A stretch of DNA of 64,000 nucleotides from an uncultured Thermoleophilia bacterium (GTDB taxonomy: Bacteria > Actinomycetota > Thermoleophilia > UBA2241): positions 1,623-65,622 of the forward strand of contig CAVYDV010000004.1 of NCBI GenBank assembly GCA_963767505.1, given 5' to 3'. Both the position numbers and the translations under genes were made by a program. The notes under the pieces were generated by a model. That model was given only the letters and a program-made list of their open reading frames with translations. It searched no databases and was not told where the DNA came from. Below are positions 1 through 36,454 of the stretch, piece by piece (position 1 is the stretch's first letter; each line of letters starts with the position of its first letter).

Positions 1-95
1 CACCGTCGCCCAGGAGCCGAAGCCACTGTCGCCCGGCGACTGAAGCCGCGTCTCGGAACTGTCACACAGCTGCCGGAGCCACTCTGTCAAGCATG
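1..95 (-). mobile_element. Outer end of a second IS481-like copy lying mostly left of the window
   Basis: nt 1-95 are near-identical to 33793-33890, the segment just outside the start (33706) of the IS481-like transposase. Similarity drops sharply after about nt 95. Confidence 0.4.
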
Positions 96-273
96 TACCG
101 GAGTCGCACAAGTCTCACTACCTGTGTTGCCGCCGAATTGCCGACGAGACGTCTCACCACGGCCCAACACGGCTGATTCCAGCTCAGCACCGAGCCCCGC
201 CAGAACCCTGGACTGTGCAGCACAATCGCACATGGGCGACTACAGCCCGTCACGCCTTCCACATGATTCCCAA

Positions 274-311
274 ACCTGGTGTCGCTGGTTCGATTCCAGC
301 CGGGGGCGCCA
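274..311 (+). other. tRNA 3'-portion-like relic, copy 1 (no 5' half)
   Basis: ACCTG-GTGTC-GCTGG-TTCGATT-CCAGC-CGGGGGC-G-CCA reads as anticodon-stem 3' strand, 5-nt variable loop, T arm, acceptor 3' strand, discriminator and CCA. No complementary 5' acceptor strand was found upstream. It lies in a non-coding block (95-420) paralogous to 33890-34230. Confidence 0.5.
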
Positions 312-526: not shown

Positions 527-772
527 CTATCTGATCAGGAAGTGCGCACCTGAGCACTTGGGCGGTTTCGTCGTCAGTCCGCAGTTGCAGATGGCAGTCG
601 TGGTCGCCTCGGTGATCTCGAACGAGAGCGGCACCACGTCGCTGCCGGCGTGCGATGTGTCACAGTAGGGAACCGTCTTCGTCTTGCCGCACCGACACCA
701 GTAGTAGGTGCCGGCATCGAGCTGGACCATCGCTGGGTGACTCCAGGCTTCGTCGTTCTCGAATCTGGGCAT
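527..772 (-). CDS. CDGSH iron-sulfur domain protein (81 aa), paralog A
   Basis: Two CDGSH-type motifs are present (CRCGKTKTVPYCDTSH and CNCGLTTKPPKCSGAH). The internal Met of ORF 527-865 gives the same 81-aa length as paralog 36209-36454. Confidence 0.85.
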   Translation of the reverse strand: MPRFENDEAWSHPAMVQLDAGTYYWCRCGKTKTVPYCDTSHAGSDVVPLSFEITEATTTAICNCGLTTKPPKCSGAHFLIR

Positions 773-1765: not shown

Positions 1766-2194
1766 GGCTGACGATAGTGCTCACAGCACGAACATGTTGA
1801 GTCCGGTGAGCGACGCCGGGCGCGCGACCGGCGCGGCGAAGCCGCGTCTGTGCGCACGGTCCTGCGCTCCATCGCCATACCCAGACTCCAGCGCGTTGTG
1901 TATCGTCGAGGCTGTGGAGAGACAGGGCACGCCTAGGTGTCTGCTCCGCGGCATCGGTCCCCCGCGTGGCCAGCCGCATCTTCGGGCAGACTGCTAGACA
2001 ACCTTACCCCATTCGTCGGTCCACTTCCTATGATAGTGCCAGAGCCGGCTGTGGGTGAGAGCGGGCGGTGCGTAGTCGGCGAGTGAGAACCCAAGCCACG
2101 CGAGCGTCGTGGACTGGCTTGACCCCCATTCGTTTGGAACCTCGGGGCTTGCAGCAGAATCGTTCAGGAGCGGCTATGGCTCGTCACGCCTTCC

Positions 2195-2241
2195 TCAGGT
2201 CTTCCGAACCTGGTGTCGCTGGTTCGATTCCAGCCGGGGGC
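2195..2241 (+). other. 5'-truncated tRNA relic, copy 2 (anticodon arm to acceptor end)
   Basis: CAGGT-CTTCCGA-ACCTG is a perfect 5-bp stem with a 7-nt loop, followed by GTGTC, the T arm GCTGG-TTCGATT-CCAGC, then CGGGGGC-A. No D arm or 5' acceptor strand is present. An IS3-type terminal-repeat fragment (CCCCATTCGTCGGTCCACTTC) lies at about 2010-2030. Confidence 0.5.
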
Positions 2242-2520
2242 ACCGGGTTCTCGCTGCACAGGGCAACTTCCTGAGAGCGTCTTGTCGCAGCTACGCCCGG
2301 ATTGCTTACGGATGCTAGGGCGCGTGCGTATCCGAGCGTGATCGAGACGGTGGCGTGTCCCGCGGCGTTTCGTGGAGACGGTCGAGTGGGATGTCCTCGC
2401 ACGGGGGCTGACTCGGCGTCACTTCGCCTCGGGGAGGGTATGGTGTATACATGCCCTCTGAACCGATCGCAGTTGAGGTTCTCCGCACGCCCGGGTGAGG
2501 ACGCTGGGAGGCGGAGCGTG

Positions 2521-5365: not shown

Positions 5366-5468
5366 GTGGCCGGTGATGCGGCGCTACGGGGAATCTGGCA
5401 CGCCCCGGGTTTGACGGAGGCTCCGTTTCTTGGAGGATCGTATCCTCAGAGAAGGGAGACCGCGTCTC

Positions 5469-5732
5469 ATGGCCAGACCATCGAAGTACTCACCGGAGTT
5501 CCGGCAGCGCAGTGTGCGCATCGCCCGCGAGTCGGAGCGTCCGATCGCCGCGGTCGCGCGTGACCTCGGCATCCACCACGAGACCCTGCGCGTCTGGGTG
5601 CGCCAGGACGAGGCGAACGACGGCACCCGCGCCGACCGGCTGGCGAGCGCCGAGCGCGAGGAGCTGGCGACGCTGCGCCGCGAGGTCCGTGACCTGCGCC
5701 CGCTGCCGCAGCTGGGGCAGCTCTTCCTGTGA
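5469..5732 (+). pseudogene. IS3-family OrfA (HTH transposase) fragment
   Basis: MARPSKYSPEFRQRSVRIARESERPIAAVARDLGIHHETLRVWVRQ is a typical IS3/IS911 OrfA. No OrfB follows it. Confidence 0.6.
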
Positions 5733-5857
5733 CGGCGCTCGACCCAGTACCTCCTCTTGCACTCAGCGCAGCGCTGCGCCGCCACCAGACCGACATCGAC
5801 GATGTACTCCCAGGATCCGGGGCTACCCCGCCTCCTCACGTGACCGCGCACGCTCAC
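5700..5857 (-). pseudogene. Tyrosine integrase, N-terminal stump with Zn-ribbon insert
   Basis: MSVRGHVRRRGSPGSWEYIVDVG...QRCAECKRRYW...CPSCGSG resembles the arm-binding N-terminus of actinobacterial or phage integrases. The remainder of the ORF is low-complexity antisense of the OrfA fragment. Confidence 0.4.
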
Positions 5858-15770: not shown

Positions 15771-16517
15771 ATGCGCCCGATGCTCCCATGGATACTCGGA
15801 TTCAGCTTGCTCGGCAGTCTCGGTGCTGTCTGCGGTGCCGCCCTGCTGCTGGCCTTTCCGGAGGGCGTCCGCAAGGTCCTCGTGCCTCTCCTGATCAGCT
15901 ACGCGACCGGCACGCTGCTCGGTGCGGCGTTCCTCGGCATGATGCCCGCCGCTCTGGAGCAGGCGCCGGCGGTCTCGGTCACGGCGACGGTGATGGCCGG
16001 CATGGTGCTCTTCTTCGTGCTCGAGAAGCTCGTGCTCTGGCGCCACTGTCACGATAGCGAGTGCGAGGTTCATGGTTCCGCCGCTCCCCTCATCCTGTTC
16101 GGTGATGCCTTCCACAACTTCGTGGACGGCGTCGTGATCGCCGCCGCCTTCCTCGCCTCGATGCCGTTGGGGGTGGCCACGGCGCTGGCCGTGATCGCGC
16201 ATGAGGTGCCGCAGGAGGTCGGCGACTTCGCCATCCTGCTCGACAGCGGGTACGGGCGCAGGAGAGCGCTCGTCCTCAACTGGCTGTCGGCGGTTCCCAC
16301 GCTCCCCGGTGCCGTCGCGGGGTACTTCTGGCTCGCCGACGCGCATGGGGCTGTGCCCTACATCCTGGCGCTCTCCGCCGCGAGCTTCATCTATATCGCT
16401 GCGGCCGACCTCATCCCGGGACTGCATCGACAGGTGAGCCTCGCTGCCTCCCTGCGTCAGCTGGTGCTGCTGTTGGCGGGGATCGGCACGATCGCGCTGC
16501 TGCGTGTTGGGAGCTAG
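15771..16517 (+). CDS. ZIP family metal (Zn/Fe) transporter
   Basis: The product is multi-TM, with a HNFVDG...AVIAHEVPQEVGDFAIL signature. Only the last 248 aa of ORF 15108-16517 look coding. Confidence 0.85.
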   Translation: MRPMLPWILGFSLLGSLGAVCGAALLLAFPEGVRKVLVPLLISYATGTLLGAAFLGMMPAALEQAPAVSVTATVMAGMVLFFVLEKLVLWRHCHDSECEVHGSAAPLILFGDAFHNFVDGVVIAAAFLASMPLGVATALAVIAHEVPQEVGDFAILLDSGYGRRRALVLNWLSAVPTLPGAVAGYFWLADAHGAVPYILALSAASFIYIAAADLIPGLHRQVSLAASLRQLVLLLAGIGTIALLRVGS

Positions 16518-32126: not shown

Positions 32127-33706
32127 TCACACGCGAGAAGAAGCCGGACCCCACTGACCGGACCCCATTCGTCGGTCCACTTCGCATGTTCGTCCCAGAG
32201 CCGCCTCCGTCATAGCTTTCGGAGGCCCGCAGTCAGAGAGCGCAAAGCCCGGCCAGGCGATCGTCTCCGGCGCTGGTGGGGCGGTCCAGTCGCTCCCCTC
32301 CGCCCCCCCGCTCCTATCCAGTCGCGTGGATCTGGGCTGCAGAATGGTCGCACCGGGCCGTGTCGGGGTCCGTTCGAAGGGCGCGCAGAGCACGACTCGG
32401 TGGTGGACCGCAGGGGTGTCGAAGCCCCCGGTCGGGTGTGGCTCCAAGCAGTGCACAGCGAGCGGCCGACGCTGTTCGAAGGTCTGATGCGGCCTAATCT
32501 CGCTGTAGAGCGAGAGGTAGGCTGCGACCTCCTCGGCGAGGTCGGCGGCGGTCTCGATCTCGCGCTGGTAGAGGTGCTCGTACTCGAGCGAGCGGTTGAA
32601 GCGCTCGACCACGCCGTTGGTCTCGGGAGCGTAGTGGCGGGTGATGTGGCGATAGTCGAAGCCCTCGAGGCTGATGCGCCCGCCCTCACGCACCCGCCGC
32701 GTGACCACCTCACCCTCGGCGGGGTGCTGCTCGCCGCTGGCCTTGGCCTCGACCGCTTCGGCTTCAGGCTGCCGTGCCACCGGCTGCTGCCCTCTCGCCG
32801 CCAGCTCGAAGCGCTTGATCGGGGCCACCATGCCGATGCCCTGATGGGGCCGCTCGCAGTTGTAGTGGGCCACCCAGGCGTCGAGCTCGGCTTGGGCGGC
32901 CTCTAGCGAGGCGAAGGTACGACCTTCGAGGAACTCACTCCGCAGCGTCTTGTGGAAGCGCTCGACCTTGCCGGTCGTGGTCGGGCTGTAGGGGGCGGTG
33001 AGCAGATGACGGACGCCGTGCTCTTGGCAGATGCGGTCGAAGAGCACCTCGCGGCGGTGGGCCCCGAAGCGCCCCGTGAAGACCTTGCCGTTGTCGGTGA
33101 GGATCTGCTCGGGGACGCCGTGACGTTGCATGGCTGCACGCAGCGCCTCGCAGACCGGTCGCGTGGTGGCGCGCTCGACGAGCTGGGCCGAGACGCAGAA
33201 GCGCGAGTGGTCGTCGATGCCGGAGACGAGCTTGAGCTCGGATTCGTCTGAGAGCTTGACGCCGCCCATCACGTCCATCTGCCAGAGCTCCATGGCCTTG
33301 AGGCGCTCCCAGCGGCGGTAGTCCTCGCGCTTGCGACGGCGCTTCTGGGGATCGATGAGGCGATGGCGCACCAGGCAGCGATAGATCGAGGAGCGCGAGG
33401 GTTGGCGCTCGAGCTCCTCCCGCGCCAGGTAGTGGGCGATCGTGCGCGGCCCCCAGCGCGGGTGGGCGAGGCGCATCTCGACGATGCGCGCCTCGACCGC
33501 CGGCGGCATGCGGTGCGGGCAGCGCCCGGTCGCGAAGAGGCGTCGGCCAGACCGGCGATGCCGCTACGCGCGTAGCGTCGCAGCCAGCGGTGCAGCGTCT
33601 GGCGGGTGACCCCGTAGCGGCCGGCCACCGCGACCACGCTGTTGCCCGCGAGGACCTCGAGGACTGCCTTGTGGCGCTGTTCCACGACTCCCAGCTCGAT
33701 GAGCAT
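32127..33706 (-). pseudogene. IS481-family transposase, frameshifted and chimeric
   Basis: The N-terminal HTH (MLIELGVVEQRHKAVLEVL...TRQTLHRWLRRY, ORF 33269-33706) is in a different frame from the catalytic part (MPPAVEARIVEMRLAHPRWGPRTI...DNGKVF...TTGKVERFH, ORF 32127-33509). Confidence 0.7.
32155..32433 (-). repeat. Right arm of the 279-bp perfect inverted repeat
   Basis: It is the reverse complement of 22920-23198. Confidence 0.85.
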
Positions 33707-33895
33707 GACGTGAGCCTCCCCGTCGAACGACCGTTGCTGGTCGTCTCTTCGAGGAGAGTGGCGCCTGTACGCTGGCCTGACTGTCGCACAGCTACCGAAA
33801 CCACCGTCGCCCAGGAGCCGAAGCCACTGTAGCCTGGCGACTGAAGCCGCGTCTCGGAACTGTCACGCAGCTGCCGGAGCCACTCTGTCAAGGAT
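32434..33895 (-). mobile_element. IS481-like element, 3' part replaced by a fragment of another rve-type transposase
   Basis: An HTH ORF and a DDE/rve ORF are present. Beyond about 32650 the reading frame switches to the C-terminal block of a different transposase (PETNGVVERFNRSLEYEHLY...IRPHQTF). The outer end is inferred from the identity of 33793-33890 to nt 1-95. Confidence 0.6.
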
Positions 33896-34072
33896 GTAGG
33901 AGTGCAAACGGATGTGGCGACCCCGTTGCCGCCTATCTGCCGACGAGACGCCTCCCCACGGCCCAACATACGACAGCACAGGCCAGCACGGCACCTCGCC
34001 AGAACGCTGGACCGTGCAGCACAATGGCGCATGGGCCACCACAGCCCGCCACGCCTTCCTGACGTTTCCTAG

Positions 34073-34107
34073 ACCTGGTGTCGCTGGTTCGATTCCAACC
34101 GGGGGCG
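34073..34107 (+). other. tRNA 3'-portion-like relic, copy 3 (degenerate T stem)
   Basis: ACCTG-GTGTC-GCTGG-TTCGATT-CCAAC-CGGGGGC-G, with one T-stem mismatch and no CCA. It is embedded in block 33890-34230, which is paralogous to 95-420. Confidence 0.45.
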
Positions 34108-34385
34108 CCGAGCACTGCCGAATGGGGCGATTTCCTGAGCCGTTCTCGGCGGCCGTACTCCCTGAGTTGCCGTCAAGCGCGAGCATTCTGAGGATGGGAC
34201 GCGCCACGGCAGAGCTCGGCTGAACACATGCCGGCCCAGGCGACTCCTTCGGCCGAGCGAGTCGGCCTACGCCCACCGGTCACGAGCCCGAATCAGCAAG
34301 CCACAGCGGGGATGCCGGAACCCTGGTCGCCCGCCGGAGCCACCACCGGCGCTCTTGCGCGATCGACCGAAGCGACCGACACGGA

Positions 34386-36208: not shown

Positions 36209-36454
36209 CTATCTGATGTCGACGTGCGCGCCCGAGCAGTAGGGCGGACTTGTTGTCAGTCCGCAGCTGCAGACGACTGTCGTGATTGGCTCAGTGATCT
36301 CGAATTCCAGTGGCTCGACACCGCTACCGATGTGCGACGCGTCGCAGTATGGGACCGTCTTCGTCTTGCCGCACCGGCACCAGTAATAGGTGCCGACACC
36401 GAACTGAACCACGGCGGGGTGGCTCTTGGTCTCGTCGTGCTCGAACCTGGTCAT
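36209..36454 (-). CDS. CDGSH iron-sulfur domain protein (81 aa), paralog B
   Basis: CRCGKTKTVPYCDASH and CSCGLTTSPPYCSGAH motifs are present. About 100 bp of upstream leader is also homologous to that of paralog A. Confidence 0.85.
   Translation of the reverse strand: MTRFEHDETKSHPAVVQFGVGTYYWCRCGKTKTVPYCDASHIGSGVEPLEFEITEPITTVVCSCGLTTSPPYCSGAHVDIR

Follow-up and report, generated by a model that had tools for sequence, protein, structure and literature searches.

Why should the tail end of one tRNA gene be found three times, always in the same orientation, in a piece of bacterial DNA? The DNA in question, which we call the window, is a stretch of 64,000 nucleotides from an uncultured Thermoleophilia bacterium, and the repeated 34-nt string, ACCTGGTGTCGCTGGTTCGATTCCAGCCGGGGGC, lies on its plus strand at positions 274-307, 2208-2241 and 34073-34106, the third copy differing by a single G-to-A change in the T stem. 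An earlier note on this DNA had reported the two outer copies, including the one substitution, at these same positions, and had placed the second at 2207-2240, which is off by one. Two readings were offered there: the copies were taken either as scars left at the attachment (att) sites of successive integrations, or as genes of a family of tRNA-like non-coding RNAs. The first of these is supported by a parent gene, fragments that run from the anticodon arm to the 3′ end, conserved arms with repeated motifs, and integrase genes or remnants both here and in relatives. We conclude that the relics are very probably attP-type junctions of integrative elements that use the 3′ part of tRNA-Arg(CCT) by means of a tyrosine integrase, and the puzzling repeat would then come down to ordinary integration scars.

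The parent gene and its fragments

A pattern search for the core of the repeat through the whole assembly (2.54 Mb in 8 contigs, 78% complete) recovered seven copies, against none for the reversed control pattern. The string is repeated more than chance would have it, and it is the 3′ part of tRNA-Arg(CCT). One of the seven copies lies within an intact tRNA-Arg(CCT) gene, which ARAGORN, run on the whole genome, places at c[16345-16420] of contig C3, and which Rfam in E-value mode scores as a tRNA with 67.6 bits; gene and string are identical over the 34 nt. The earlier note had supposed that such an intact parent might lie elsewhere in the genome, and contig C3 is where it was found. The remaining six copies are fragments, three of them in the window, which belongs to contig C4, and three near the end of contig C8. 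Within each contig they are direct repeats, all on the plus strand in the window and all on the minus strand in C8, and we refer to them as w1, w2 and w3 (the window junctions 1 to 3) and as c8a, c8b and c8c.

When the parent and the six fragments are aligned, the homology to the tRNA is seen to start with the 5′ strand of the anticodon stem and to run to the 3′ end of the molecule, which makes them end fragments rather than internal ones. The three cores of the window are the following:

261-307, plus strand: core 1, 47 nt corresponding to positions 27-73 of tRNA-Arg(CCT), which extend from the anticodon arm to the end of the acceptor; variants are confined to the 5′ 13 nt, the other 34 nt being those of the gene, and GCCA stands at 308-311
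2195-2241, plus strand: core 2, 47 nt, with the anticodon stem intact and the loop altered (CTTCCGA); the 3′ 34 nt (2208-2241) are identical to the gene
34060-34106, plus strand: core 3, 47 nt, with a variant 5′ part (TGACGTTTCCTAG) common to a copy in the related genome G007; its T-stem change is uncompensated

A D arm or a 5′ acceptor strand is absent from every copy in the window, in agreement with the earlier note, which had also correctly described the perfect anticodon arm of copy 2 (CAGGT-CTTCCGA-ACCTG) and the G-CCA that directly follows copy 1. The same GCCA stands directly after the parent gene. All three copies of C8 retain the full arm CAGGTTTCCTAAACCTG, and those of the window vary over their first 13 nt; the last 34 nt are identical in the fragments, except for one change each in w3 and c8c. 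Since the 5′ variants are shared with copies in other genomes (CATGATTCC in w1 and in genome G001, TGACGTTTCC in w3 and in G007), they are markers of the element lineages and not the outcome of decay in place.

Conserved arms, integrases and probably stacked junctions

The conservation extends well beyond the tRNA part, by about 150 nt on the upstream side of the string and 110 nt on the downstream side. This extent had been missed by the earlier note; TTCCTGAG, rightly seen there downstream of all three window copies, belongs to the downstream arm. The upstream or P arm, of about 135-165 nt, precedes the fragments and is absent upstream of the intact tRNA-Arg; the downstream or P′ arm, of about 110 nt (CTGCATATGGC..TTCCTGAG..GAATTGCTGCC.GATGCCGACATTCTGCCGACGAGA), is common to the fragments and the intact tRNA-Arg. 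Both arms carry repeated TGCCGAC motifs, and the P arm opens with the doublet TGCCGCC-N4-TGCCGAC. A heterobivalent tyrosine integrase classically has an attP of this layout, in which the core is flanked on either side by motifs repeated in one orientation, and the TGCCGAC motifs, by their position and repetition, are putative arm-type sites of the integrase. In the window, the arms are arranged as follows:

126-260, plus strand: P arm of junction 1, with the TGCCGCC-N4-TGCCGAC doublet and the conserved blocks CACCACGGCCCAACAC and GCCAGAACCCTGGACTGTGCAGCACAATCGC; common to the 5 other Arg-type junctions and to 8 further sites of the genome
308-417, plus strand: P′ arm of junction 1, CTGCATATGGCAACTTCCTGAG ... 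GAATTGCTGCCGAATGCCGACATTCTGCCGACGAGAC; homologous to the DNA right after the intact tRNA-Arg (78%) and after tRNA-Cys
2060-2194, plus strand: P arm of junction 2, divergent (56-60% identical to the others) and without an insertion sequence
2242-2315, plus strand: P′ arm of junction 2, divergent, GCTGCACAGGGCAACTTCCTGAG ... CGCCCGGATTGCTTACGGATGC
33925-34059, plus strand: P arm of junction 3
34107-34215, plus strand: P′ arm of junction 3

Between copies, the cores are 85-98% identical, the P arms 50-90% and the P′ arms 54-81%. The possibility that the P arm is a decayed form of the native upstream sequence and 5′ half of tRNA-Arg was considered and rejected, the local alignment being equal to that of shuffled sequences (z about 0).

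The same arms are also found around another core. On contig C2, a P arm runs into the final 51 nt of tRNA-Cys(GCA), behind which comes a P′-like arm, and the intact tRNA-Cys (C4:500943-501016) has a P′ arm downstream. At C8:1078021 and C8:1130918, two further copies of the P arm run into a common non-tRNA sequence. Because the same arms surround tRNA-Arg and tRNA-Cys cores, the junctions appear to derive from one family of elements with conserved arms and swappable tRNA cores, which would offer a natural system on the switching of tRNA targets by integrases.

As regards the integrase itself, the stump that the earlier note had located at 5700-5857 is indeed present in the window, within slightly narrower limits:

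5705-5851, minus strand: N-terminal stump of a tyrosine integrase (residues 1-49, 78% identity), convergent with junction 2

An IS3-family fragment at 5387-5700 cuts it off. Phage_integrase fragments (Pfam) are also found 7 kb downstream of the parent tRNA and convergent with it, where a full-length member of the family used as query reveals a frameshifted gene broken into four frames; a D5-type primase and a PD-(D/E)XK protein (Pfam) lie downstream of the same tRNA. The genome retains two intact integrases of the family, one at C8:1199188-1200432 and the other, a protein of 415 aa (72% identical), in convergent orientation 1.7 kb downstream of the intact tRNA-Cys. Neither in the window, beyond the stump of 49 codons, nor in the C8 array was a further integrase found, and any integration activity at these junctions would accordingly be historical. 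The elements of the window are now dead, with an integrase stump and heavy damage by insertion sequences.

The related genomes offer a better preserved picture. The att region matches 30 of 41 of them, mostly from the same genus, and each carries 2-10 such junctions. Their layout, textbook in G004 and G007, consists of a tRNA, a convergent tyrosine integrase, and a P arm with the 47-nt fragment. In G004, tRNA-Arg(CCT) with its P′ arm is followed by the integrase at 4.2 kb and by the P arm and core at 9.2 kb, and in G007 the same order spans 23.7 kb; in both, the 3′ fragment keeps the orientation of the tRNA and is located downstream of it, with an intact integrase in the interval. A close relative, L059, has the same sequence upstream of tRNA-Arg(CCT) and also the P′ arm; its integrase is intact, 84% identical and convergent with the tRNA, and this locus looks like an undecayed version of the element beside the parent tRNA here. 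The integrase family is abundant in named metagenome-assembled genomes (MAGs) of uncultured Thermoleophilia from soil and peat, and the tRNA beside it, where in range, is tRNA-Cys(GCA) (six loci) or tRNA-Arg(CCT). We are therefore dealing with what seems a previously unnamed family of integrative elements, specific for these two tRNAs and abundant in uncultured soil Thermoleophilia.

These junctions could have arisen in a simple way. The tyrosine integrase of an element would recombine with the 3′ part of tRNA-Arg(CCT), with a crossover at or near the anticodon loop. Upon integration, the element's own copy of the tRNA 3′ part would join the host gene, giving an attL that consists of an intact tRNA and the P′ arm, and the earlier 3′ part would be displaced to the far end, behind the P arm of the element. 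Related elements could then integrate repeatedly into the regenerated tRNA and become stacked in tandem on the chromosome, so that each internal junction would show a P arm on its left and the P′ arm of the next element on its right. The 34 identical nucleotides would lie to the right of the crossover, where they would be constrained to match the tRNA in every lineage of elements, and the 13 variant nucleotides and the arms would come from different lineages; the boundary between the variable and the identical parts suggests that the crossover lies close to the 3′ side of the anticodon loop.

As every attP must match the tRNA in order to regenerate a working gene, the identity of the 34 nt needs no RNA function, and this bears directly on the other reading of the repeat, according to which the copies are functional, transcribed genes of a tRNA-like non-coding RNA made of the T arm, the 3′ strand of the acceptor and an upstream hairpin. 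Three features could be taken that way: the 3′ 34 nt are (near-)identical in all copies between diverged flanks, copy 1 ends in GCCA, and the three window copies allow a 4-bp hairpin to be drawn. However, the identity is explained by the match between attP and tRNA, and the GCCA is simply copied from the gene. Moreover, ARAGORN (tRNA and tmRNA) returned no gene in the window and Rfam nothing at the gathering threshold, the relics included; in E-value mode, the parent is the sole tRNA, and the best fragment reaches 23 bits, below the threshold of 29 bits. The hairpin, to which the earlier note had ascribed a compensatory change (GGGC/GCCC versus GAGC/GCTC), lies within the P arm. Over 11 distinct copies of P arm plus core, 61% of the cells pair, which is not above shuffles on any measure, and the A-U variant occurs in one of the 11 copies, with five others unpaired at that position. 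The T-stem changes of w3 and c8c likewise break pairs without compensation. Given that there is neither a covariance-model match nor covariation in the hairpin, an RNA family of this kind is extremely unlikely.

The insertion sequence and the number of integrations

A separate layer is formed at this locus by an insertion sequence (IS). The termini of such elements had been described as adjoining all three copies; in fact, copies 1 and 3 each have an IS end some 150 nt upstream (window 110 and about 33908), and none is found beside copy 2. The corresponding features are:

1-110, minus strand: left end of IS copy 1, which belongs to an element of the IS481 family about 1.73 kb long and has its remainder before the window (C4:1-1622); the transposase gene has its start codon upstream of the window and points in the direction opposite to the relic; the IS end ...GGAGTCGCACA is at 110
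111-125, plus strand: putative target-site duplication of IS copy 1, the 15-mer AGTCTCACTACCTGT
32653-33908, minus strand: older IS copy, truncated and frameshifted, 91.7% identical at the DNA level, ending at the homologous spot of the P arm in junction 3

The transposase is a DDE protein of 508 aa with the Pfam domains HTH_32, rve, rve_3, LZ_Tnp_IS481 and Mu-transpos_C_2, and its score against the IS481 model of NCBIfam, NF033577, is 297.6 bits for a cutoff of 224. The ends of the element read TGTCAAGT... and ...CGCACA and contain several subterminal repeats. With a score above the equivalog cutoff, TGT...ACA termini and direct target duplications no longer than about 15 bp, the element is assigned to the IS481 family. 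Target duplications are also seen in relatives, where they measure 13 bp in G022, with the empty site preserved in G002, and about 12 bp in G256.

Four of the six Arg-type junctions carry the IS, the exceptions being w2 and c8b, and it is also missing from the eight other P arms of the genome and from all junctions in G001, G004 and G007. Three copies, IS copy 1 and two on C8, are 99.5-99.9% identical, and the att DNA that adjoins them is 86-89% identical. Each IS copy is an insertion of its own at one and the same position, 14-17 nt beyond the doubled motif; the element has inserted at the outer border of the P arm, its left end pointing to the core. The fact that the same spot is occupied in four of six junctions could also suggest that the att module travels as cargo of the IS, as a sort of portable attachment site, in which case the relics would mark transposition and not integration. 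An IR-like 20-mer (TGTCAAGTC...), which resembles the right end of the IS and precedes three further P arms here, would fit with such a scenario. However, the identity of 99.5-99.9% ends exactly at ...CGCACA and falls beyond it, in relatives, target duplications of 12-13 bp immediately adjoin the IS ends, and an empty site is known. P arms in genomes free of the IS, moreover, have no IR-like sequence, and junctions without the IS occur both here and in relatives. The break in identity and the target duplications led us to reject the att module as a part of the IS, and we give hardly any credence to the relics as marks of transposition.

Integration remains, thus, the reading that we prefer, but how many integrations took place is a different matter. 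It might be thought that there were few, and that the copies arose by segmental duplication or by IS-mediated rearrangement of a block with a single junction. The best case for it is the pair formed by w1 and w3, which share the IS, the P arm, the core, the P′ arm and a downstream CDGSH gene that is found at these two places only; the two may have come from an old duplication of the block or from sister elements. We had considered the CDGSH gene as a conserved first gene of the elements, and discarded it, as it is found only downstream of copies 1 and 3. In addition, the 15-mer AGTCTCACTACCTGT of w1 recurs beside the IS copy of c8c (C8:1237557), in contact with its far (right) end, and either recombination between IS copies or misassembly must have swapped the flanks and rearranged these regions. 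On the other hand, the arms of the six junctions diverge by 10-50%, and their relationships are discordant, which indicates recombination at the core in general; c8b, for instance, is 63-69% identical to the other junctions in the P arm and 75-79% in the P′ arm. The core variants match separate lineages in other genomes, the neighbours of copy 2 and of the C8 copies are unrelated, and the relatives carry several junctions each (2-10). Duplication as the general source of the copies is therefore unlikely.

A terminal junction, with P arm and core followed by host DNA, was not found among the six fragments, all of which are followed by a P′ arm. Contig C4 starts and contig C8 ends inside IS copies, in both cases at the outer (right) end. 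A joining of C3, C4 and C8 by their contig ends was tried and rejected: the start of C3 is unrelated, and no path could be built. Contig C3 itself extends for 16.3 kb past tRNA-Arg without any junction.

Taken as integration scars, the relics are of a well-known kind, that of tDNA island junctions, accretion arrays and remnants similar to cis-mobilizable elements (CIMEs), and they are unusual in the number of junctions. Tandem islands and displaced fragments at tRNA genes have been defined by Islander (Hudson, Lau & Williams 2015, PMC4383910), where arrays of three or more are 4 among 3,919 islands and the anticodon-centred ‘A’ class of attP is the commonest crossover class (PMC4383910). As in those tDNA islands, an intact tRNA and displaced anticodon-to-3′ fragments coexist in one genome, the integrase lies inside the interval (in the relatives), and stacked islands each have a fragment of their own (PMC4383910). 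What differs here is the finding of six fragments for one tRNA in a genome of 2.5 Mb, with a linkage between array and tRNA that we infer; such a number would make this tRNA a major site of gene gain. Having lost their integrases, the elements of this genome would fail the integrase filter of Islander. A second parallel is the site-specific accretion of CIMEs at tRNA genes, reportedly exemplified by ICESt1 and ICESt3 of Streptococcus thermophilus. Like CIMEs, the segments found here are devoid of a recombinase, bounded by att-type sites, provided with conserved arms and stacked at one target; in contrast to them, the intact integrases of the family are placed at tRNA-Cys and at C8:1199188, from where they would have to act on these sites as partners. 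Among actinomycete elements, the Streptomyces phage VWB is said to integrate into tRNA-Arg(AGG). The target isoacceptor (anticodon CCU), the actinobacterial host and the tyrosine integrase would be the same; no phage genes were seen here, where a D5-type primase and a PD-(D/E)XK protein stand beside the parent tRNA. Stress proteins and a selenoprotein peroxiredoxin are among the cargo of the elements, together with an orange-protein (metal-sulfur) gene cluster.

Probable targeting by the insertion sequence

The more interesting lead is probably the IS: a one-gene transposon that would find tRNA-type attachment DNA in a fixed orientation and with neither helpers nor a guide RNA. The element is rare: within the genus 3 of 41 genomes have it, and within the class 28 of 401. 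Among its relatives, a tRNA gene or fragment lies within 250 nt of the left end in 19 of 22 flanks, and of the right end in one of 10. The 19 left flanks fall into four groups:

five of 19: intact tRNA-Arg(CCT), whose 5′ end lies at a distance of 82-117 nt
four of 19: 3′ fragments reading away, at 151-159 nt
seven of 19: intact tRNA (Lys, Ser, Val, Cys) that turns the 3′ end toward the IS, in most cases at 102-111 nt
three of 19: 3′ fragments of tRNA-Lys or tRNA-Met, at 96-99 nt

As a control, a 1.3-kb IS3-like element with about 11 copies in this genome has none within 1 kb of a tRNA. This association of the IS lineage with tRNA points to targeted insertion, and a literature search for a tRNA-targeting element of the IS481 type returned nothing relevant.

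How the target would be chosen admits more than one answer. A tentative one, which we consider possible but doubtful, is that the IS is a single-protein ‘att-site hunter’, which would read the integrase-bound arm of a tRNA-type att site rather than a sequence. Such an element, from a Thermoleophilia branch of IS481 with a Mu/TnsB-type barrel and multi-repeat ends, would insert in one orientation, 5-30 bp outside the outermost helically phased pair of arm-type repeats. This would account for its occurrence on both sides of tRNA genes, beside tRNA fragments and at no fewer than eight unrelated doubled motifs, and a target of this kind, an arm occupied by integrase, would be a new case of a mobile element reading the recombination machinery of another.

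There are precedents for this kind of behaviour. Res-site hunting by Tn5053/Tn402 was reportedly described by Minakhina et al. in 1999, and these transposons are known as ‘res site hunters’ (PMC7765201). They are Mu-like DDE transposons that choose sites occupied by the site-specific recombinase of another element, as the IS would do; in contrast, they need TniB, TniQ and a serine resolvase, whereas here one protein and a tyrosine integrase would suffice if the idea holds. Elements of the IS1202 family target dif/pdif sites (Harmer, Pong & Hall 2023, PMC10132070), and share with the IS a single large DDE transposase with an N-terminal HTH, an RNase H fold and a Mu/TnsB-type barrel, as well as TGT...ACA ends with extra subterminal repeats and insertion, free of helpers, in one orientation by a tyrosine-recombinase site (PMC10132070). 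However, the target duplications are of 12-15 bp here and of 5 bp in IS1202, and the distances to the core of 80-160 nt and 5 bp, respectively (PMC10132070). Membership of the IS1202 family was rejected in favour of IS481, because the transposase has R and not Q at E+7 (E-RFHKTL-R) and scores 89 bits against ISNCY_2, for a cutoff of 250.

The alternative is that the transposase reads the tRNA-type DNA itself, at an offset specific to each clade, an explanation with somewhat better prospects, if still short of probable; what is left would go to other or mixed explanations. All the close relatives of the IS in the genus lie by tRNA-Arg(CCT) sequence, and this, together with its restriction here to Arg-type junctions (four of six, versus none of the eight other P arms), favours the recognition of the tRNA part. 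The reading of an att arm, in turn, would be suggested by the seven of 19 tRNA matches that are fragments, as fragments occur only at att junctions. In the family-f4 genomes, no integrase was found on the contigs that carry the IS and the right flanks look like ordinary genes, so that the reading of att arms is unproven for them.

A further indication comes from the repeats next to the IS. Within the first 60 nt past the element, a direct repeat with an offset of 10-12 bp and at least 9 matches is present in 13 of 26 left flanks, compared with 0.2% of shuffled sequences and 1.7% of random genomic 60-mers. These repeats correspond to about eight unrelated families of motifs, some of them common to different genera at the same tRNA. 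In L104, the doublet is the P′ motif of tRNA-Cys, and in G007 the doubled motif lies upstream of tRNA-Arg, in an island of 5.3 kb bounded by a displaced 5′ fragment.

tRNA genes used by the element family

The family of tyrosine-integrase integrative elements that left its relics in the window, characterized by common arms and exchangeable tRNA cores, has a sister element in the same genome (G000), integrated at the tRNA-Cys(GCA) gene (C4:500943-503916) and carrying an intact integrase. On another contig (C2:158900-162700), three tRNA-Cys 3' fragments are stacked together with integrase remnants and with P arms, the conserved stretches upstream of tRNA cores, of the type found in the window. 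The tRNA-Cys(GCA) gene is a second integration hotspot of this family.

The tRNA-Arg(CCT) gene also serves as a target from its other side. In the related genome G007, a 5.3-kb island (loci L020-L022; G007:C1:790494-795946) lies between the intact gene and a displaced 39-nt 5' fragment, which retains its own promoter-like upstream region. It follows that the “native” upstream region of this tRNA is carried by an island in most of the genus.

An IS481-family branch beside tRNA-type DNA

Members of the branch to which the IS of the window belongs encode a 508-aa transposase with a Mu-type barrel, and show multi-repeat ends and duplications of 12-15 bp. The following copies and loci were found:

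Window 1-110, IS copy 1
Window 32653-33908, IS copy
C8:1235832-1237557, IS copy in G000
C8:1258225-1259946, IS copy in G000
L027, L028 and L092-L117, loci in Thermoleophilia relatives

Across Thermoleophilia, a tRNA gene, or a 3' fragment of one, occurs within 250 nt of the IS left end at 19 of 22 loci, and a tRNA gene or fragment lies equally close to the right end at one of ten. Doubled repeats with helical-turn spacing are enriched just outside the IS end.

A 20-mer resembling the right terminal repeat of the IS, TGTCAAGTCnnAGTACCnGT, directly precedes P arms devoid of any IS, and could be found only in G000, being absent from IS-free relatives:

C8:1078021, 20-mer
C8:1130918, 20-mer
C4:527317, 20-mer
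C8:1237558-1237580, 20-mer at the far flank of an IS

This 20-mer may be the footprint of a solo IS end, or it may mimic a target. The far flank on C8 (1237558-1237580) also contains the 15-mer that adjoins IS copy 1 (window 111-125); flanks have been swapped between both copies, through either IS-IS recombination or an assembly misjoin. Contig C4 ends within a P arm (527317-527405), after which come unrelated bases and ten consecutive A; this suggests an artefact of assembling a repeat.

Sequences following the arms, and two tRNA genes

Two P arms on C8 have no tRNA core after them; in its place both have a 200-nt sequence, 97% identical between the two, with the palindrome GGAAGACGTCTCC; partial copies are located at C8:1074406 and C8:1233753. 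Junctions 1 and 3, the att-type relics of the window, are each followed by a CDGSH iron-sulfur-domain gene, the latter after ~2 kb of extra DNA. Their products are 73% identical, and no other CDGSH gene was found in G000. Among the tRNA genes called by ARAGORN in this genome are a tRNA-SeC and one with a CTA anticodon, whose product could either suppress amber codons or carry pyrrolysine.

C8:1078140-1078340, 200-nt non-tRNA sequence
C8:1131040-1131240, 200-nt non-tRNA sequence
Window 530-772, minus strand, CDGSH gene after junction 1
Window 36212-36454, minus strand, CDGSH gene after junction 3
C4:445872-445944, tRNA with anticodon CTA, labelled tRNA-Pyl
C5:122503-122600, tRNA-SeC
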